The notes beneath the pieces are model-generated. The model was not told where the DNA came from and ran no database searches. It was given only the letters and a program-made list of their open reading frames with translations. From positions 1-37,431 of the forward strand of contig JBJTIV010000118.1 in the NCBI GenBank assembly GCA_046095145.1: a stretch of DNA of 37,431 bases, in the 5' to 3' direction. Below are positions 1-21,841 of this stretch, in pieces (positions within the stretch are counted from its first letter, which is position 1; each line of letters opens with the position of its first letter). Source of the stretch: Planctomycetaceae bacterium (GTDB lineage Bacteria; Planctomycetota; Planctomycetia; Pirellulales; UBA1268). Made by a program: the position numbers and the translations under genes.

Positions 1-2
1 CC

Positions 3-293
3 CGCGAGCAGAAGATCACCGACACGATCGCCGCCACCAACGCCGCCCACGAGGAGGCCCGCCGGCAGCTCGCCTCCTACGAGCGGCGGCTGGCCGAGGC
101 CGCCGACGAGGTCCGCGGCATGCTCGAGGAGGCCCGCCGCGACTCCGAGTCCACGCGGCAGGCCATCATCGCCGAGGCCCGCAAGGCCGCCGACGAGGAG
201 CAGGCCCGGGCCAAGCGGGAGATCGGCCTGGCGAAGGACGACGCGCTCTCGCAGATCGCCGAGAAGGCCGGAGCCCTGGCCGTCGAGGTCGCT
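3..293 (+). pseudogene. atpF: ATP synthase F0 subunit b (AtpF) coiled-coil segment, encoded on the strand opposite to atpB-atpE; cut by the window edge at its 5' side
   Basis: The frame-3 translation REQKITDTIAATNAAHEEARRQLASYERRLAEAADEVRGMLEEARRDSESTRQAIIAEARKAADEEQARAKREIGLAKDDALSQIAEKAGALAVEVAA is the Ala/Glu/Arg-rich helix typical of b subunits. Third-codon-position G/C is nearly 100% up to about 290. It then drops (gct, gaa, gct, gaa, cgt, cat, gat, cga, gca ...), although the ORF stays formally open to 668. Confidence 0.7.
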
Positions 294-488
294 GCGGAAC
301 TCGGCCGGGCTCTCGAACTCGGCCTGCGTCATGCCGGCCGGGGCGCCGTGGCCGATGGCCACGTGGGCGTGGTCGCCACCGTGGTCGGCCTCGGCCGGGC
401 CCGAGGCGGCCGCGGCACCGCAGGCCGCGAACAGGACGCCGGCGACGAGCAGCCGGACGCAGGGTCGGCAGGAGTGGGACGAGGACAT
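291..488 (-). pseudogene. atpF: AtpF N-terminal fragment (signal-anchor-like start plus His-rich stretch), not followed by the expected membrane helix
   Basis: The ATG at 488 has GGAG about 12-15 nt upstream and lies 150 nt downstream of atpE, which is the slot expected for atpF. The translation MSSSHSCRPCVRLLVAGVLFAACGAAAASGPAEADHGGDHAHVAIGHGAPAGMTQAEFESPAEFRS(DL) has high GC3. Below about 290 the same minus-strand frame turns into antisense-type text (DGQGSGLLGDLRERVVLRQADLPLGPG...). Confidence 0.6.
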
Positions 489-637
489 CACGGCACGAGC
501 TCCGCTGGCGGGTGGCATCGATCTCCCGTCACCCCGGACGGGCGGCCCGCCGCGGGCAGGATGTCCTGCGCCGAGGCGGCCGCGCCCTCCGGACGACGGC
601 GTTCAGGTCAGACGTTCGGGCCTGTTCGGCTCCGCAC

Positions 638-946
638 TCACTTGGGGGTGCAGAGGAACAGCGCGTAGAACGTGAAGCCTTCGATCAGGGCCGCGGCGAT
701 GATCATCGCCGTCTGGATGCTGCCTGCGACCTCGGGCTGGCGGGCCATGCTCTCGTAGGCGCTGGCGGCCAGCTTGCCGATGCCGAAGGCCGCGCCGATC
801 ACGGCCAGGCCGATCCCGATGTAGGGCGTGAGGTCGATGAGCGGGGTGACGCCGTCGGCCGCGCTGGCGACGTCCGCACAGGCGAACATGGCGGCGAAGG
901 CGACGAGGACGGAGAGCGTACGGGCGACGTGAAGCGATCGAATCAT
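638..946 (-). CDS. atpE: ATP synthase F0 subunit c, with an N-terminal signal-like extension of about 30 aa
   Basis: This is the C-terminal 102 aa of the 638..1966 ORF, starting at ATG 946. It forms a two-helix hairpin with the Gly-rich IGIGLAVIGAAFGIG, the loop ARQPE, and the ion-binding Glu in AAALIEGFTFYAL. It sits directly downstream of atpB. Confidence 0.95.
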   Translation of the reverse strand: MIRSLHVARTLSVLVAFAAMFACADVASAADGVTPLIDLTPYIGIGLAVIGAAFGIGKLAASAYESMARQPEVAGSIQTAMIIAAALIEGFTFYALFLCTPK

Positions 947-1020
947 GACGGGATCAAACTCCTGGGGATGACGGGAAACGGGTGTGAATCGGAACCGTGG
1001 ATGCCGGTGCGGCGACAAGC

Positions 1021-2031
1021 CTAATGTTGGTGCACGGCCGCGCCAATGAAGAGGGCCGAAAGAAAGGTGAAAATGTAGGCCTGCAGGAAGGCGACGAAGA
1101 GCTCCAGCAGGCTGAACAGGGTGCAGCTCACGACGCTGATCCCGGTGACGGTGGCCCACATCCCCGTGGAATAGGCCGCGGCGGCCGAGATCAGGCCCAT
1201 GATCCCCAGCAGCACCAGATGGCCCGCCACCATGTTGGCGAGCAGTCGCACGGCCAGGATCAGGTGCTTGATGCACAGCCCGAGCATCTCGATCGCGAAG
1301 ATCATCGGCTTGAGCACGATCGCCAGCGGCAGCGGCAGGTCCATCGACGGCACCTGGTTGGTGAAGAAGCCGAGGACGCCGAACTTCAACATGCCGGCCA
1401 CGATCACGGTCAGGAACGTGACGGCCGCCAGCGACAAGGTCACCGAGAACGACGCCGTGGGCGAGCCGGCCCAGGGCACCATGCCGAGCAGGTTGCAGCC
1501 GAGCACGAAGAAGAAGAGCGTGAGCAGGAGCGGCACGAACCGGTCGCCGTCGTGGGCCGGGACGGCATGGGCCACGGCGTGGCCGTGCTCCTCGTGGCCG
1601 TGGTCGTCGTCGTGGTGGTCGTGGCTGTCGATGGCCGGCCGGGCGATCTGGTCGCGCACGAACACCACCACCGACTCGAGCATGTTGGTGAGCCGGCCCC
1701 GCGGCGGATCGCCGCCGCGCACCCGCGCCGCCAGCCGCGTGAACAGCAGCACCATCACCGTCGCGACGACCAGCTCCAGGATCATGTACTTCGAGATCCC
1801 GAAGCCCGACTTCATCGCGTACAGGCTGTGCAGCTCGCCGAACGGCTGCGGGATCAGCACCTTGCCGTCCATGGCCTCCTTGAAGACCGCCGGATCGGTG
1901 ACCTCCGGATGGCCGTCGCGCAGGAACCGCGGCACGTCGTCGAGCGACCGCCAGTCGTAGCGCCACAGCGCCTTCGGCACCTCGAAGAAGTAGCAGTCCT
2001 TGAGGTGGTAGATGGGATTGTGGGCGGCCAT
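1021..2031 (-). CDS. atpB: ATP synthase F0 subunit a
   Basis: The conserved C-terminal helices include LAVRLLANMVAGH (essential Arg) and FLQAYIFTFLSALFIG. ATG 2031 (MAAHNPIYHLKD) is preceded by AGGAA. The track start at 2097 is a TTG that abuts the atpI stop, so I disfavour it. Confidence 0.93.
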   Translation of the reverse strand: MAAHNPIYHLKDCYFFEVPKALWRYDWRSLDDVPRFLRDGHPEVTDPAVFKEAMDGKVLIPQPFGELHSLYAMKSGFGISKYMILELVVATVMVLLFTRLAARVRGGDPPRGRLTNMLESVVVFVRDQIARPAIDSHDHHDDDHGHEEHGHAVAHAVPAHDGDRFVPLLLTLFFFVLGCNLLGMVPWAGSPTASFSVTLSLAAVTFLTVIVAGMLKFGVLGFFTNQVPSMDLPLPLAIVLKPMIFAIEMLGLCIKHLILAVRLLANMVAGHLVLLGIMGLISAAAAYSTGMWATVTGISVVSCTLFSLLELFVAFLQAYIFTFLSALFIGAAVHQH

Positions 2032-2093
2032 CTGGATTCCTGTCGGTCGGCTGCGGAAGGGGCGGGTAGTGTGCGGGACGGTCGGCGCGGCGG

Positions 2094-2528
2094 TCAACGA
2101 GGCGGCCGCGATCGCGGCGTGGACGACCCCGGGTCCATCATGATGTGCAGCAAAATCGCCGTGGCAAGCAACGCCAGGTAAAAGGCCACCAGCAGGCCGC
2201 CGGCGCCCGCCTCGCGGAGGGAGCGGCCCTGCGCCGCGAGCCAGACCAGCGCGGCGAGGCCCGGCACCACCCGCAGCACCGTCGCCCCGAGCGCCGAGCC
2301 GCCGCGCCGCGCCGGGTCCACGGTCGCGCGGCGGGCGACGATCCAGCCGCCGATGCCGCCTGCGCCCGCGACCAGCGCCGCGAAGGCCACGGCCCGTCCC
2401 CAGAGCGGCCGGCCGGTCCCCGCCGCCAGGGCCACGGCCACCGCGCCGCCGAGCACGCCGGCGAGCACGATCGTGCCGAGGACGGTGTCGCGCGCGGCCC
2501 GGGCGTGCGGTGCCGGGGGCGTGCTCAC
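2094..2528 (-). CDS. atpI: ATP synthase protein I-like small membrane protein
   Basis: The 144-aa protein has about four hydrophobic segments and lies immediately upstream of atpB. Its GTG start overlaps the stop of the preceding gene (GTGA), which suggests translational coupling. The call rests on position and hydropathy only. Confidence 0.6.
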   Translation of the reverse strand: MSTPPAPHARAARDTVLGTIVLAGVLGGAVAVALAAGTGRPLWGRAVAFAALVAGAGGIGGWIVARRATVDPARRGGSALGATVLRVVPGLAALVWLAAQGRSLREAGAGGLLVAFYLALLATAILLHIMMDPGSSTPRSRPPR

Positions 2529-2743
2529 GGTGCGCGCCTCCCGCGGCTCAGGCTGACGAGCCAGGCGAGGGCCGTCGTGAACCCGATCACGAAGCCGACC
2601 GGGCCGAGCACCCTGGTGCCCAACCGCTCGTCGAGCCAGCCGCCCGCCACGCCGGGCAGGAACATCGTGAGGCCGATGGCCATGATCCGCGAGGCCCAGG
2701 CCATGGCCTCACCGATCGGCGATTCGGATGGAGTGCGGGGCAT
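2525..2743 (-). CDS. AtpZ/ATPase_gene1-family small membrane protein, first gene of the atp operon
   Basis: The 72-aa protein has two TM segments. IGLTMFLPGVAGGWLDERLGTRVLGPVGFVIGF matches the G..G.wLD..lgT signature of the AtpZ family, and the gene sits at the head of the atp cluster. Confidence 0.6.
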   Translation of the reverse strand: MPRTPSESPIGEAMAWASRIMAIGLTMFLPGVAGGWLDERLGTRVLGPVGFVIGFTTALAWLVSLSRGRRAP

Positions 2744-2749
2744 GGTGCT

Positions 2750-2755
2750 AGGATA
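2750..2755 (-). promoter_or_regulatory. -10-like hexamer TATCCT, 6 nt upstream of the atpZ ATG (candidate leaderless promoter); reads TAGGAT on the plus strand towards corA
   Basis: It is a rare AT-rich hexamer in a GC-rich context. The spacing to ATG 2743 fits a transcription start at or next to the start codon. I found no clear -35 element. Confidence 0.3.
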
Positions 2756-2786
2756 CCGCACCGACATTCCACCGGGGTCGCTCGCC

Positions 2787-3878
2787 GTGTCGCAGCGCAA
2801 ACGCCGCCGCCGCCGCCCGCGCGACCGCGATCTCGCCGGCTCGATCGCCGCGGCGACGAAGCCCTCCGGCCCGCCGGCCACCCTGCGGCTGGTCGCCTGC
2901 GAGGGGCAGGCCACGCACGAGTCGGTGGTGCAGCGGCCGGAGGACCTTGCCGCGGTGCGGGAGAAGTGGCCCGTCATCTGGCTCGACGTCGAGGGGCTCG
3001 ACGATCTGGCCACGATCCGCTCCATCGGCCAGACCTTCGGGATCGGCGACCTGGCCCTCGAGGATGCGATCACCCCCGACGAGCGGCCCAAGGTGGAGGT
3101 CTTCGGCCACCAGCTGCTGATCGCCGTGCGGATGGCCCGCTACGACGGCGAGACGCTCGTGACCGACCCGATGGCGATCTTCCTCGGCGACCGCTCGGTG
3201 ATCACGTTCCACGACCGCTCGAGCCACGACGGCTTCGAGGGGGTCCGGCAGCGGATCCGCCAGCATCGCACCCGGATCGGCGAACTCGGGGCGGACCACC
3301 TCTGTGCCCTGCTCCTCGACGCGGTGATCGACGGGTATTTCCCGGTGCTCGAGCGGTTCGGCGACCGGCTGGAGGACCTCGAGGAGGAGGCCCTGGAAAC
3401 GCCCAGCCGCCGCACGCTGGCCCGGATCCACGACGTCCGCAACGACCTCATGACGCTCCGGCGGGCCCTCTGGCCCACCCGCGACGTGCTCCACGCACTG
3501 GGCCGGGAGTCGACCGCCTTCGTGGGCGACCATGCCCGCCAGCACTTCCGCGACTCCTACGACCACACGATGGAACTGCTCGACCTCATGGAGGGCTACC
3601 GCGAGATCGGCAGCGACCTTCGCGACATCTACCTGGCGAGCATCAACAACCGGATGAACGACGTGATGAAGGTGCTCACGGTGATCGCGACCGTGTTCAT
3701 GCCGCTGACGTTCATCACCGGCTACTACGGCATGAACTTCCACACCGATTCGCCCTGGAACATGCCGCTGTTGCGCTTCCGCTACGGGTCGCTGGTGGCG
3801 GCGGGGATCATGGTGGCGACCACGCTGGGCATGGTGTATTTCTTCTGGCGCCGCGGCTGGCTGAAGCGTTGGCACTGA
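2787..3878 (+). CDS. corA: CorA-family magnesium/cobalt transporter
   Basis: The gene shows VFMPLTFITGYYGMNF (GMN motif), two C-terminal TM helices, and an N-terminal cytoplasmic domain collinear with CorA. The start is uncertain. I prefer GTG 2787, which lies 35 nt after TAGGAT. ATG 2742 would overlap the divergent atpZ ATG within CATG. Confidence 0.88.
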   Translation: MSQRKRRRRRPRDRDLAGSIAAATKPSGPPATLRLVACEGQATHESVVQRPEDLAAVREKWPVIWLDVEGLDDLATIRSIGQTFGIGDLALEDAITPDERPKVEVFGHQLLIAVRMARYDGETLVTDPMAIFLGDRSVITFHDRSSHDGFEGVRQRIRQHRTRIGELGADHLCALLLDAVIDGYFPVLERFGDRLEDLEEEALETPSRRTLARIHDVRNDLMTLRRALWPTRDVLHALGRESTAFVGDHARQHFRDSYDHTMELLDLMEGYREIGSDLRDIYLASINNRMNDVMKVLTVIATVFMPLTFITGYYGMNFHTDSPWNMPLLRFRYGSLVAAGIMVATTLGMVYFFWRRGWLKRWH

Positions 3879-3991
3879 CTGTACGGCGGGCTCGGGCATC
3901 CTGCCCTCCCCGCCTGAGGAGCGGCCTCCAGCGAAGCCGAGGTTCGCTTCGGCCGCGGGCGGCCATCGTGGCCGCCACGCACAGCGGGCTC

Positions 3992-4125
3992 GGGGCTGCC
4001 CACGCCCTCTCGCCGGACGTTCGCTGCGGGCATCCATGCCCTTCGCTCACTCGGAGGTGTCTGCGCTCTCGCCCTCCGGGCTCCGCTGGCCACCTACGCC
4101 GGCTCTCAGGGCAATGGGCAACCCC
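3992..4125. repeat. Copy A of a ~130-nt structured palindromic intergenic repeat
   Basis: The termini GGGGCTGCCCA and TGGGCAACCCC are inverted. The element aligns end to end with 8407..8539 and 21701..21830. It contains internal hairpins at 4028..4041 and 4071..4081. It lies between the convergent 3' ends of corA and the ROK kinase. Confidence 0.85.
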
Positions 4126-4165
4126 GCACCTCCCGCAGACGCACAATGCGCTCGCGCGAGCCGCG

Positions 4166-8406: not shown

Positions 8407-8539
8407 GGGGCCGCCCAGGCCCCGTCGCCGGACGTTCGCTGCGGTCCTCCGGACCTTCGCTCTCTCGGAGGCGTCTGCGCTTCGCCATCCCTGGCTCCGC
8501 TGGCCGCCTACGCCGGCTCTCAGGGCTATGGGCGACCCC
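8407..8539. repeat. Copy B of the ~130-nt structured palindromic repeat
   Basis: The termini are GGGGCCGCCCA and TGGGCGACCCC. Hairpins lie at 8443..8455 and 8484..8495. It has the same order and orientation as copies A and C and sits just after the ettA stop. Confidence 0.85.
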
Positions 8540-8785
8540 TCACTGCGTCGACTCCCGTTCGGGAGCGAAGGCGGGGGGCTCGGGACGAGGATGCGGAGCA
8601 CGCGGCGCTTCGCCGCAGCGAACGCAACTCGTACCGGCCCGTAGCCGAGCGGTTTGGGCTCTGTGACGCCGCAACGAACCGGTCTGGTTTGCCCGCGGGA
8701 TACCCTCGTGCGTAGCAGTCTGCCGCTGTGGGCAGGGGATGCGGCGGCGGGGCTCGAAAGCGGAGCCGGCCGCGAGGGTCTTCCC

Positions 8786-16471: not shown

Positions 16472-17983
16472 CTACTCCGCGCGGTCTCGTCGCGCGGCGG
16501 CCTCCGCAGCGGCCGCCTTGGCCGCGGCGGCTTCCGGCGGCGCTTGCTGCGCGGACGGTCGACCCCGCGACGCCACGATGCCGACGCTGATCACCGTCGC
16601 GAGGCTTGCCACGGCCGCCGCGATCCACGTCCAGCGGGGCAGGCTGGCGATCCACCGCAGCGGGCCGCGCGGGCCGGGCTGCGCCGCAGGGGTGGTCGGC
16701 GACTGCACACTGATGACGCGGCCGGTCACGCCCGGCTTGGGACCCGGCAGCGAGGGCCGGATGCCGCTGCGTCCCGCGCCGGCCGTCGGCCCGAACACGT
16801 GCGAGCCCAGGCCGATGCCGGAACTCCCCGCCCGCTGGCCGCCGCCTGACGCGGGCGGCCGCGGCGGCGCGGGCCACACGCCCGAACCACCGGCCGACCC
16901 CGGCGCCCTGCGCGGCGGGCTCAGCGGGGCCGTGGCCTGTCCGGCGCCCGAGGCTCCCAGCCAGGCGCCCAGCACGTCGGCCACCTCGCGGGCGGTCTGG
17001 GGGCGGGCCGCCGGATGCTTCTCCAGCATCCGCGAATAGAGCTCCACGATCTGCGGCGGCAGGTCGGGCCGGTCGTCGAGCGGGTTCGGCCGGCTCTGCT
17101 TTTGATGGGCCAGGATCCGGTCGGCGAGCTTGCCGCCCGAGAAGGGCACCCTTCCCACGAGCAGGTAGTAGAGGGTGCAGCCCAGCGAGTAGATGTCGGA
17201 CCGGGCGTCGGCCTTGTGGCTGTCGACGGCCTGCTCGGGGGCGAGGTAGTCGGCCGTGCCCAGGATCCTCTCGTCGTACTCCTTCGTCAGCGACCCGTCG
17301 TCGTCCCCGGCGCCGGCGAGGGCCAGGCCGAAATCGAGGATCTTGACGACGCCGCGCCGGTCGAGGATCAGATTGGCGGGCTTGATGTCGCGGTGGATCA
17401 CGCCCTCCTCGTGCGCGTACTGCAGGCCCAGGGCCGCCTGACGCACGTAGTCGGCGGCGTCGCGGACGTCCAGCGGGCCTTCGCGCTTGACCTTGGCGTG
17501 GAGATCGATGCCCTCGATGTAATCCATCACGAAGTAGTGGATGGAGCCCGACGTGCCGCTGTCGGTGGCCCGGACGATGTTCGGATGGTCGCGGAGCCGG
17601 AAGGCCTCGCGGGCCTCCTGTTCGAAACGGGCGAGGTACGAGGTCTTCTCGACGTGCTTCACCGGCAGCACCTTGATCGCCACCTTGCCGTGGAGGTGGA
17701 CGTGCTCGGCGAGGTAGACGCTGCTCATGCCGCCGGCGCCGAGCAGCGTGAGGAGCCGGTAATTGCCGAGCGTGAAGCCCTTGTGCTTTCCCTTGCGGAG
17801 CTGGTCGACCTGCCACTGCGTGAGCAGCCCGCCGTCCACGACCGCCCGCACGAGCGCCTCGGGGAGCGGCTGGGAGCCGTCGGTCCACGCGGTGCATGCC
17901 GCCGCCAGCCGATCCTCGGCGACAAGGCCGCTCTTCCTCACGACGGCCAGGAAGTCGTCGATGGACTTGACGGGTTCGGCCAT
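16472..17983 (-). CDS. Membrane-anchored Ser/Thr protein kinase
   Basis: The Hanks kinase motifs GAGGMSSVY, AIKVL, HRDIKPANL, DFG and APE are present. A Pro/Gly-rich linker and a C-terminal TM segment (WIAAAVASLATVISVGIVA) follow. Confidence 0.92.
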   Translation of the reverse strand: MAEPVKSIDDFLAVVRKSGLVAEDRLAAACTAWTDGSQPLPEALVRAVVDGGLLTQWQVDQLRKGKHKGFTLGNYRLLTLLGAGGMSSVYLAEHVHLHGKVAIKVLPVKHVEKTSYLARFEQEAREAFRLRDHPNIVRATDSGTSGSIHYFVMDYIEGIDLHAKVKREGPLDVRDAADYVRQAALGLQYAHEEGVIHRDIKPANLILDRRGVVKILDFGLALAGAGDDDGSLTKEYDERILGTADYLAPEQAVDSHKADARSDIYSLGCTLYYLLVGRVPFSGGKLADRILAHQKQSRPNPLDDRPDLPPQIVELYSRMLEKHPAARPQTAREVADVLGAWLGASGAGQATAPLSPPRRAPGSAGGSGVWPAPPRPPASGGGQRAGSSGIGLGSHVFGPTAGAGRSGIRPSLPGPKPGVTGRVISVQSPTTPAAQPGPRGPLRWIASLPRWTWIAAAVASLATVISVGIVASRGRPSAQQAPPEAAAAKAAAAEAAARRDRAE

Positions 17984-18058: not shown

Positions 18059-18595
18059 TCAGAGCCCGAGGTTCAGGCCGCGGTCGTGGAGAGCCGCGAT
18101 CAGGTCGGCCGCCGAGGTGAAGACCTCGGCGTCCCAGCCCGCGGCACGGGCGCCGGCCACGTGCTCCGGCAGGTCGTCGGTGAAAAAGATGCGCTCCGGG
18201 GCCACGCCGGCCGCCGTTGCGGCGGCGGCGAAGATGCGTTGGTCGGGCTTCGCCGCGCCCACCTGGAAGCTCAGCACGATTCGCGACACGGCGCCCGTGA
18301 GGCAGGCCCACCCGCCGGCTCGGAGGTGGTCCCAGTGGATGCCGCAGGTGTTGGAGAGGATGCCGAAGGGGCAGTGGATCCGCTCGAGCCCCGCGAGCAC
18401 GGGAATCATGTCGGGCTTGAGCGTGAACATGTCGCTCGCGGCGCGACCGAGCGCCGCAGGATCGCTGGTCGTGCCGGTCCGACGGCTGAACTCGGCGTGA
18501 AAGCCGGGCCAGTCGATGCGGCCGGCTTCGAGGTCGGCCTGGAGGCCGCCCGCCATGACCACCTCCTCGACGCGGCCGGCGGTCGCGCCCGACAC
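18059..18595 (-). pseudogene. YihX-like HAD-IA phosphatase body lacking its N-terminal catalytic motif I in this orientation
   Basis: Motif II (GILSNT), motif III (Lys in GAAKPDQRIF) and motif IV (FFTDD) are present, together with the cap region GRVEEVV...EAGRIDWPGFHAEF. The nucleophile motif DxG/DxV is missing. The frame has a TGA six codons upstream of the GTG at 18595. Confidence 0.8.
18572..18595. repeat. Left inverted repeat of the putative invertible segment
   Basis: Its reverse complement, GTGTCGGGCGCGACCGCCGGCCGC, matches 18732..18754 (GTGTCGGTCGCGACCGCGGCCGC) at 22 positions, with one mismatch and one 1-nt indel. Confidence 0.8.
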
Positions 18596-18731
18596 GGCAA
18601 GATAGTATCCTCACGCGGGGATTGGAAACCTCCGAAGCTGTATGGCCAGGCGTCCTGAATTCGTCTTCCTGGACCTCGGGAACGTGCTGTTCGCGTTCGA
18701 CCGGGCCCGGGCCTTCCGGCAGATGGCGGCG
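18596..18731. other. Putative invertible DNA segment (136 bp) carrying the HAD phosphatase start codon, motif I and upstream leader
   Basis: The segment is bounded by the 23/24-nt inverted repeats. Flipping it joins [30 protein letters not shown] in frame to VSGATAGRVEEVV... and yields a complete 208-aa HAD protein. Confidence 0.65.
18642..18731 (+). pseudogene. Detached 5' end of the HAD phosphatase gene (30 codons with motif I), currently in frame with ilvD
   Basis: [14 protein letters not shown] is the YihX-type motif I (compare E. coli YihX IFDLGNVIVDIDF). It continues through a 16-codon linker ([16 protein letters not shown]) into the ilvD ATG at 18780. Confidence 0.8.
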
Positions 18732-18754
18732 GTGTCGGTCGCGACCGCGGCCGC
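18732..18754. repeat. Right inverted repeat of the putative invertible segment
   Basis: See the entry for 18572..18595. It encodes VSVATAAA here, compared with VSGATAGR for the partner on the minus strand. Confidence 0.8.
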
Positions 18755-18779: not shown

Positions 18780-20462
18780 ATGACGACCCTCAATCGCACC
18801 AGCGCCCGCATCACGCAGCCGCGGTCGCAGGGCGCCTCGCAGGCGATGCTCCTCGGCACCGGCCTGCAGCCGGCCGACCTCGACAAGGCCCAGGTCGGCA
18901 TCGCGAGCATGTGGTACGAGGGCAATACGTGCAACATGCACCTCGACCGCCTGGCCGCGAAGGTCCGCGAGGGGGTGGTGGCGGCCGGCCTCGTGGGCAT
19001 GCGATTCAACACGATCGGCGTGAGCGACGGCATCTCCATGGGCACGGAGGGGATGAGCTACTCGCTGCCCTCCCGCGACGTCATCGCCGACTCGATCGAG
19101 ACGGTGATGCACGCCCAGTGGTACGACGCCCTGGTGGCGATCCCGGGCTGCGACAAGAACATGCCGGGCTGCCTGATCGCGATGGGCCGGCTCAACCGGC
19201 CCGCGCTCATGGTCTACGGCGGCACGATCAAGGCCGGCCACCTGGCCGACGGCACGCCGCTCGACATCGTGTCGGCGTTCCAGTGCTACGGCGAGTACGT
19301 GGCCGGCCGCATCGACGATGCCCGACGGGCCGACGTGGTCCGCCACGCCTGTCCCGGCGCCGGCGCCTGTGGCGGCATGTACACGGCCAACACCATGGCC
19401 ACCGCGATCGAGGCCCTGGGCATGGCCCTGCCCGACAGCGCGTCGATTCCCGCCGAACACCCCGACAAGCTCCAGGAATGCCTGCGGGCCGGCGCCGCCG
19501 CGCGGCACCTGCTCGAGCGTGATCTCAAGCCACGTGACATCATGACCCGGCGGGCCTTCGAGAACGCCATGGTGACCATCATGGCCCTGGGCGGCTCGAC
19601 GAACGCCGTGCTCCACCTCATCGCCATGGCCCGCGCCGTGGACGTCGATCTGGGGCCGGCGGACTTCCAGAAGACCGCGCGGCGCATCCCCTACCTCGCC
19701 GACCTCAAGCCCAGCGGGAAGTTCGTGCAGGAGAACCTGCACGCCGTCGGCGGCACGAGCGGCGTCATGAAGTACCTGCTGGACAAGGGTCTCATGGACG
19801 GCGACTGCCTGACCGTCACCGGCAAGACCCTGGCCGAGAACCTCGCCGCCCACGCGGGGCTGGCGGCGGGGCAGCAGGTGATCCGGCCGGTGGAGAACCC
19901 GATCAAGAAGACGGGCCACATCACGATCCTCCACGGCAACCTGGCGCCCGGCTCCGCGGTGGCGAAGATCACGGGCAAGGAGGGCTCGCGGTTCCGCGGC
20001 CCGGCCCGCGTGTTCGACAGCGAGGAGGCGATGCTCGCCGCGCTCGAGCAGGGAGGCATCCGCCGTGGCGACGTGGTCATCATCCGCTACGAGGGCCCGA
20101 AGGGCGGGCCGGGCATGCCGGAGATGCTCACCCCCACCTCGGCACTCGTGGGCGCGGGCCTGGGGGCCGACGTCGCCCTGATCACGGACGGTCGCTTCTC
20201 CGGCGGCTCCCACGGGTTCATCGTCGGTCACGTCGTGCCCGAGGCCCAGGACGGCGGGCCGATCGCCCTGGTGCGCGACGGCGACGTGGTGGTCATCGAC
20301 GCCGACGCGGCCACGCTCGACGCGGAGGTGGGGGCGGAGGAGTTCGCCCGCCGGCGGGCCTCGTGGAAGGCGCCCGCGTCGAAGGCGACCCGCGGCATCC
20401 TCGCCAAGTACATCCGCTGCGTGGCGCCGGCCTCGCGCGGGTGTGTGACCGACGAAGCCTGA
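18780..20462 (+). CDS. ilvD: Dihydroxy-acid dehydratase
   Basis: [29 protein letters not shown]..., [21 protein letters not shown] and the C-terminal [16 protein letters not shown] are collinear with the ~560-aa IlvD type. I take ATG 18780 as the native start, although the ORF is open from 18642. Confidence 0.93.
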
Positions 20463-21664: not shown

Positions 21665-21700
21665 GTTTTCACGGCACACGCGTGATAGCCCAACCGGCTC

Positions 21701-21830
21701 GGGGCTGCCCACACCCTCTCGCCGGACGCTCGCTCCGGTCATCCTGACCTGCGCTCGCTCGGAGACGTCTGCGCTTCGGCATCCTGCCTGCGCTGGCCGT
21801 CTACGCCGTCTCGAGGGGATGGGCAGCCCC
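21701..21830. repeat. Copy C of the ~130-nt structured palindromic repeat
   Basis: The termini GGGGCTGCCCA and TGGGCAGCCCC are a perfect 11-nt inverted repeat. Hairpins lie at 21737..21749 and 21778..21788. It sits between the convergent 3' ends of the btaA-like gene and the secreted-protein gene. Confidence 0.85.
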
Positions 21831-21841
21831 TCGCCGGCGCG

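Follow-up and report, generated by a model that had tools for sequence, protein, structure and literature searches.

A strand flip within atpF at the tip of a planctomycete contig is most likely a chimera of assembly or library preparation and not damage to an essential gene

Introduction

Chimeras that arise during DNA amplification are inverted in 85% of cases, join segments that mostly lie less than 10 kb apart, and carry 2-21 nt of complementarity at the joint (Lasken & Stockwell 2007, PMC1855051). Intragenic invertons have been described in Bacteroides, for example in thiC, with 11-nt repeats (Chanin et al., bioRxiv 10.1101/2023.03.11.532203). Here we compare both systems, and planctomycete-type AtpF, with a locus at a contig end where atpF, the gene for the ATP synthase b subunit, changes strand partway along its length.

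The DNA analyzed (the window) is an entire contig of 37,431 nt, on which its own products P0128, P0243, and P0244 are recorded. A preliminary description of the window had read a change of coding strand near position 290 as an internal inversion of atpF. We found that the geometry is indeed that of an inversion joint, as judged against 66 collinear relatives, whereas the genuine disruption of an essential gene implied by that reading is less likely than a chimeric contig tip.

Results

atpF is split over two strands in the assembled sequence

The window has a G+C content of 73%, so the coding frame is sharply marked by third-position GC. In plus frame 3, the codon phase shows 100% GC from 1 to ~270, while the minus-strand frame that opens at ATG 488 shows 95-100% from ~290 to ~480, placing the flip at ~285-295. 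Both pieces are homologous to AtpF, and the proposed strand switch inside this gene is thereby confirmed.

The plus-strand piece (Table 1) encodes the coiled coil, residues ~98-194 of a 225-aa AtpF. Its frame 3 translation is REQKITDTIAATNAAHEEARRQL...IAEKAGALAVEVA, with the coiled coil beginning at REQKITD. It matches Pfam PF00430 (ATP-synt_B, B/B') over profile positions 31-128 of 132 (E=1.4e-10), as well as NCBIfam F0F1 subunit B models, which agrees with the earlier placement of the coiled coil on the plus strand. Identity to L001, an intact related locus, is 95% at the amino acid and 91% at the nucleotide level, and identity to the homologous protein P0001 is ~94% (91/97 positions).

The minus-strand piece encodes the first 68 residues of AtpF. 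Its translation, MSSSHSCRPCVRLLVAGVLFAACG...HGAPAGMTQAEFESPAEFRSDL, starts with MSSS, is signal-anchor-like and His-rich, and ends in ESPAEFRSDL; in relatives, the membrane helix follows this motif directly. Alone, this segment has no Pfam or NCBIfam match. Its homology is with the N-terminal extension found in planctomycete AtpF, as shown by a tblastn match to L001 (E=4e-23), tblastn matches in 60 or more loci, and 78% identity to the P0001 N-terminus. The segment comes after atpE, as it does in L081, the closest intact operon. The atpF-like start previously suggested at ATG 488 is thus supported by both tblastn and the P0001 alignment, which likewise show that positions 291..488 are AtpF-related.

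Neither fragment contains a stop or frameshift or shows decay, and conservation of the coiled-coil piece is high. Past the junction, the minus frame opened at 488 continues antisense to the coiled coil and is stop-free to the end of the sequence. What the contig lacks is the 29-aa membrane helix, the last 31 aa of AtpF, and atpH; the preliminary description had already noted that the helix and the last ~30 residues were missing. A membrane helix and coiled coil in one uninterrupted frame, as expected of a b subunit, were not found, since the pieces lie on opposite strands and the helix (AIWSFAVFLGLLGLLTAFAWKPIMQGL in relatives) is absent. When a hybrid AtpF was rebuilt using the membrane helix and C-terminus of L001, it matched PF00430 over positions 3-131 of 132 (E=6.7e-24). 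The earlier statement that no intact b subunit is encoded holds for the contig, and its scope is the contig rather than the genome.

A partial gene called from the contig edge at 3..668 on the plus strand (P0244, 221 aa) is present in a public protein collection. This product fuses the b-subunit coiled coil to the antisense of the atpF N-terminus and the atpE 3' end, and is an annotation artifact of the junction.

The neighboring atp genes had been listed as a minus-strand series of atpZ, atpI, atpB, and atpE. Pfam and NCBIfam matches bear out atpB and atpE. The two small open reading frames upstream of atpB have no Pfam or NCBIfam family match, so the atpZ and atpI labels are positional only; genes of equal size occupy the same places before atpB in L081. 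The 144-aa protein at the atpI position was found identical on short Logan contigs that are 99.0-99.7% nucleotide-identical to the window and that end inside atpB; SRR29270181, SRR29270199, SRR29270202, and SRR8088692 are the sequencing runs containing this species at that identity. AtpB has a long N-terminal extension and a His/Asp-rich insert. His-rich stretches occur in both the a subunit (HDHHDDDHGHEEHGHAVAHAV, window 1540-1630) and the N-terminal extension of the b subunit (HGGDHAHVAIGH, window 340-400), and the 102-aa c subunit has a signal-peptide-like N-terminal extension. His-rich AtpF N-terminal extensions and a c subunit of 102 aa recur in relatives.

Table 1. Coordinates of features at the atpF junction, in the neighboring atp genes, and at the HAD/ilvD inversion
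Feature	Position in window	Strand	Basis or remark
atpF coiled-coil segment	3..293	+	Opposite strand to rest of operon, from contig edge to junction; PF00430, L001, L081
Junction microhomology CGAGGTCGC	284..292	homologies of both strands	Nucleotide alignments to L001; site comparison in relatives
atpF N-terminal segment, 68 codons	285..488	-	tblastn; alignment with P0001-P0011; third-position GC phase
atpE, c subunit, 102 aa	638..946	-	PF00137 (E=9e-12); TIGR01260; product is P0243
atpB, a subunit, 337 aa from ATG 2034	1021..2034	-	PF00119 (E=6.5e-45); NCBIfam subunit A models
144-aa membrane protein at atpI position	2094..2528	-	No family match; conserved here in relatives
70-aa open reading frame at atpZ position	2525..2737	-	Positional assignment only; 72-aa gene at same place in L081
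HAD hydrolase remainder, 178 aa, without DxD motif region	18059..18595	-	Called as P0128
Inverted-repeat arm 1 (GCGGTCGCGCCCGACACGGC)	18579..18598		Inside HAD codons ~30-36
Inverted segment, 130 nt	18599..18728		-10-like AGATAGTATCC motif, HAD ribosome-binding region, HAD codons 1-29
Inverted-repeat arm 2 (GCGGTGTCGGTCGCGACCGC)	18729..18748		31 nt upstream of ilvD ATG 18780
ilvD, 560 aa from own ATG	18780..20462	+	PF00920, PF24877; 559-560 aa in relatives

The two pieces belong to a single orthologous gene

Related loci were collected with an AtpB scan, taking one genome per species, which yielded 80 loci, all from Planctomycetota-like metagenome-assembled genomes, with a best AtpB identity of 83%. 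In these relatives, AtpF is ~225 aa long and consists of a signal-anchor/His-rich extension ending in ESPAEFR(S/K)DL, a 29-residue membrane helix, AIWSFAVFLGLLGLLTAFAWKPIMQGL(D/E)K, a coiled coil (REQ...LAVEVA), and a 31-residue tail (GKFLREKLG...RPSVN). Every locus that has both pieces (66/66) carries them on the same strand and exactly 87 nt apart, the length of the 29-codon helix. A protein search with the rebuilt hybrid returned 688 homologues, and all 120 of the 120 listed are single PF00430 proteins.

L081 has the order atpB-atpE-atpF-atpH, with one atpF. In a blastn comparison with L081, window 286-3200 (83.7%) and window 15-292 (95.3%) aligned in opposite orientations, and positions 1-292 showed the same discordant orientation in 55 related loci. 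The split arrangement was absent from the 66 related loci and the 120 listed homologues; among the assemblies compared, only this contig showed the flipped state. Given the constant 87-nt same-strand spacing in relatives, and homologues that are single proteins, the two pieces are, to judge from these alignments, one orthologous atpF with an inverted junction.

We considered whether the contig instead contains two convergent genes: a plus-strand b/b' gene that ends near 290 and is part of another atp cluster, and a minus-strand gene for an unrelated small secreted His-rich protein. Long open frames on both strands fit such a layout, as does the lack of a Pfam or NCBIfam match for the minus-strand piece alone. 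However, every relative has the two pieces as residues 1-68 and ~98-194 of the same protein, encoded on one strand with a constant gap of 87 nt, and related operons have a single atpF. The plus-strand piece also lacks the conserved C-terminal 31 residues, and its frame stays stop-free until 668, antisense to the atpF N-terminus and atpE 3' end. Its 95% nucleotide identity to the single atpF of L081 further speaks against a separate convergent cluster. The collinearity of related loci, the AtpF alignments, and the L081 blastn comparison effectively refute two convergent genes, and we consider this arrangement extremely improbable.

A chimera between genomes, in which window 1-292 came from another organism, was suggested by its 95% identity to L081 against 84% overall. 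This candidate was rejected because identity to L081 is mosaic along the whole operon, ranging from 0.7 to 0.99 per 90-nt window. An inverted duplication was likewise rejected, as no copy of 1-290 was found elsewhere in the window.

Searches for atpF from the same species gave at best 87% identity with the hybrid AtpF as query, and no candidates with the 68-aa N-terminus alone. An exact 32-mer beside the junction and an exact 26-mer in the N-terminal segment had no match in the metagenome contigs scanned, and identical-sequence queries with the AtpE, GuaA, and AtpB proteins did not lead to the left flank. Within the N-terminal segment, ~64 nt at window 315-380 on the minus strand (VAIGHGAPAGMTQAEFESPAE) are 100% nucleotide-identical to L001, while the operon overall is ~80-84% identical. 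This local identity and the mosaic identity to L081 may reflect recombination or strong constraint.

The junction is microhomology-mediated

N-terminal homology on the minus strand reaches down to 284 and coiled-coil homology on the plus strand reaches up to 292, leaving a 9-nt overlap that could extend to 11 nt depending on the ancestral Ala codon. The 9 nt are common to both homologies because the S-D-L codons (AGC GAC CTC) are the reverse complement of the E-V-A codons (GAG GTC GCT); on the minus strand, the junction reads ...GAGTTCCGCAGCGACCTCGACGGCCAGGGCTCC... Among 400,000 random inverted joints simulated for the window, an overlap of at least 9 nt arose with P=2.5e-4. The atpF joint is thus microhomology-mediated, with 9-11 nt shared at the one visible junction.

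The window contains ~1,400 perfect inverted pairs of 9-mers at a spacing of 50-1000 nt, so the junction site is no special hot spot. Among nine relatives compared, the intact gene holds a weaker inverted repeat, of 7-8 nt in L008 and L003 and less in the others. On this comparison of coding sequences, the short repeat is a by-product of the codons and is not conserved beyond coding constraint.

The junction lies 290 nt from the contig end and is the only one present, though a true inversion needs two. The second is predicted ~96 nt past the contig end, with the helix, the C-terminal 31 codons, and atpH unassembled.

Relative to nine related contigs, a complete inversion separates the start of a HAD hydrolase gene from its remainder

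The preliminary description had pointed to a second strand switch, at a HAD hydrolase gene and ilvD. A repeat search and comparison with nine related contigs showed that this one is a real, complete, and clean inversion of 130 nt between 20-nt inverted repeats (18/20, 90% complementary). The plus strand carries HAD codons 1-29, followed by repeat arm 2, in the frame of ilvD, whose open frame extends upstream to 18642, and the HAD N-terminus (32 residues) can be read at 18642-18737. As assembled, HAD matches only the second half of PF00702 (positions 92-191 of 191). Flipping the spacer in silico produced a 208-aa HAD that matches positions 4-191 of 191 and is 99% identical to P0242 and 97% identical to P0121.

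The nine related contigs (L082-L090) came from JGI, ENA, an NCBI genome, and five Logan runs. Discordant blastn matches showed the spacer in the opposite orientation, with a 208-aa HAD, in 9/9 of them, and IlvD is called at 559-560 aa where complete. L085-L088 are 98.5% nucleotide-identical to the window in the flanks, and the flipped window differs from them at few positions, one of which is at the junction. Runs SRR32903066, SRR32903067, SRR32903069, and SRR32903071 contain the same species at 98.5% identity. The repeat arms are not conserved in L089 and L090, relatives of 81-86% amino acid identity. These data suggest that the HAD/ilvD arrangement may be a genuine strain-specific inversion. 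It should be tolerated, since ilvD retains ATG 18780 and the AGATAGTATCC motif now points towards ilvD.

The AGATAGTATCC motif (18599-18612, in the HAD-ilvD intergenic region) is largely conserved at 81-86% amino acid identity, reading AGGATAGTATCC in L089 and AGAATAGTATG in L090. Its resemblance to a -10 element on either strand suggests that the promoter core is shared and bidirectional.

A chimeric contig tip is the favored explanation of the atpF junction

The b subunit is an essential component of the F1Fo stator. A fixed disruption of atpF would be strongly deleterious, since subunit b is the sole stator gene in the related operon atpB-atpE-atpF-atpH. We regard it as probable that the atpF junction is a foldback chimera, or a minority molecule captured as a contig tip. 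The most likely origin is assembly or library preparation, and damage to an essential gene is the less likely reading. This reading is favored by the single junction close to the contig end, by an inverted segment whose distance from its source (~376 nt) and 9-nt complementarity match features of amplification chimeras, by the intactness of both fragments and the high conservation of the coiled coil, by an arrangement unique among relatives, by a short repeat that is conserved no further than the codons impose, by the negative search for a recombinase across the 37 kb, and by a gene that is essential and single-copy in this operon type. A chimeric or ambiguous junction would also be expected to break the contig at that point, whereas a fixed inversion unrelated to the contig break would place the contig end inside the ~385-nt segment by chance in roughly 1-2% of cases (from 385/37,431 and two ends). 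The strand flip at the contig tip does not show that atpF is inverted in the organism, and it is most likely no real feature of the genome.

In the chimeric molecule, the N-terminal segment would be linked at its end (...S-D-L) to the coiled-coil end (...E-V-A) in reverse complement, through the 9-11 nt of inverted microhomology native to the intact gene, in which GAC-CTC is the reverse complement of GAG-GTC. The molecule most likely formed in vitro, when amplification or library preparation led to fold-back or template-switch priming; failing that, it would be a rare molecule rearranged in vivo. The true path via the membrane-helix codons would have stayed unassembled at a coverage gap or graph fork, and the assembler would have taken the chimeric path back through the coiled coil and then stopped. 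In one possible scenario, a k-mer coverage gap falls in the helix codons, tip clipping removes the short true branch, and the longer chimeric branch runs back via the coiled coil to the same gap.

Some observations weigh against a chimera. The HAD/ilvD inversion on the same contig has both junctions assembled mid-contig, which is hard to explain as an artifact unless the DNA was amplified, and this lineage may undergo genuine inversions between inverted repeats. There is no indication of amplification, and the related contigs are metagenome assemblies and metagenome-assembled genomes. In addition, the contig stops ~96 nt before the predicted second junction, so a simple graph model needs an extra coverage gap or fork.

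These observations bear on a second reading, in which a genuine, non-programmed inversion allele is fixed or present in a sizeable sub-population. The inverted repeats of 9-11 nt at codons ~66-68 and ~192-194 would have recombined, or served for template switching during replication, and so flipped the ~376-nt segment with the membrane helix and coiled coil. The F1Fo stator would be inactivated, and the contig would have broken where both orientations, or co-occurring relatives, fork the graph. The observed junction has exactly the geometry of the first of the two that such an allele would create, and a polymorphic inversion would also account for the nearby contig break. The HAD/ilvD inversion, repeat-flanked and complete relative to contigs that are in some cases 98.5% nucleotide-identical, looks viable, with ilvD retaining its own ATG and probably gaining the HAD promoter side; if that inversion is real, the chance that the atpF joint is a real allele rises. 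However, only one atpF junction was assembled, its repeat is very short and is one of ~1,400 comparable pairs in the window, and neither fragment has decayed even though the allele would destroy an essential, single-copy stator subunit. None of the 66 loci or 120 listed homologues shows the split. We therefore treat a genuine allele as a serious but unlikely alternative.

A programmed, reversible inverton would require a recombinase to flip the helix and coiled-coil segment, turning ATP synthase off in part of the population, and HAD/ilvD would be another inverton, in part intergenic. Intragenic invertons with repeats down to 11 nt have been documented, as have invertons overlapping gene starts (bioRxiv 10.1101/2023.03.11.532203), and the window has two inversion joints within 37 kb. 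Pfam scans of ~30 open reading frames across the 37 kb found housekeeping families only and no site-specific recombinase or invertase domain. Relatives preserve the atpF repeat no further than their codons require, the HAD arms are lost in L089 and L090, and the two sets of repeats share no convincing motif. The flipped state was seen in no other assembly (0/9 for HAD, 0/66 for atpF). Based on these results, a programmed inverton is very unlikely.

Relatives reveal no further discordant segments in the window

Where relatives cover the window, no further discordant segments were found. A third strand switch, at a Ser/Thr kinase gene (16472-17983), was rejected because the apparent change comes from a low-complexity Pro/Gly/Ala tail that stays in the frame of the gene. 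Across the whole window, scans for tRNAs and Rfam families gave no match.

A G+C-rich intergenic element of ~140 nt is present in three copies (~3985-4135, 8425-8545, and 21690-21836) with a mean column identity of 77%. Each copy lies just downstream of a gene end, those of corA, an ABC-F ATPase, and DUF3419, and one has internal 32-nt inverted arms (21694-21725 / 21806-21837). The element also occurs in L050 and L062 and has no Rfam or tRNA match.

Discussion

In the assembled sequence, atpF is split over two strands, and a chimeric contig tip is the probable cause of this arrangement. If the junction is an artifact, which is the likeliest case, the last 290 bases of the deposited contig are misoriented, create a false partial 'subunit B' gene (3..668), and make an essential gene look lost. 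The lesson would then concern data quality, since this assembly would mislead analyses of completeness or of pseudogenes.

If the inversions are real, natural planctomycete populations undergo gene-disrupting inversions driven by short inverted repeats, and the HAD/ilvD inversion would be a candidate to study, being complete and present in just one of ten assemblies of the lineage. A reversible atpF switch, if true, would be a striking case of phase-variable energy metabolism. The contig would then record a freshwater planctomycete with reversible inversions in core metabolism, where an atpF inverton (9-11 bp repeats, ~376-bp segment) stops the F1Fo stator and a 130-bp inverton over the HAD start rewires the HAD/ilvD promoter region, amounting to phase variation of energy metabolism in a free-living bacterium. 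We give this picture a very small chance of being correct.

As in amplification chimeras (PMC1855051), the second atpF segment is inverted and lies ~376 nt away in the native gene, and a single junction is present with 9-11 nt of complementarity, within the 2-21 nt range. Unlike those chimeras, the atpF junction entered a consensus contig, with no indication that the source DNA was amplified, and the neighboring HAD inversion comes with both of its junctions, an outcome that one chimeric event alone does not produce.

The resemblance to invertons (bioRxiv 10.1101/2023.03.11.532203) lies in an atpF inversion inside coding sequence between short inverted repeats, and in a repeat-flanked HAD/ilvD segment that overlaps a gene start and a promoter-like motif. 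In contrast to invertons, the repeats lack conservation in relatives, the search for a nearby recombinase was negative, and no second orientation was found in other assemblies. The target, atpF, is also an essential housekeeping gene, and its second junction was not seen. As assembled, the gene differs from planctomycete-type AtpF in lying on two strands without the membrane helix and C-terminal 31 residues, whereas both of its fragments are orthologous to that protein (PF00430, with a signal-anchor and His-rich extension) and the gene follows atpE.
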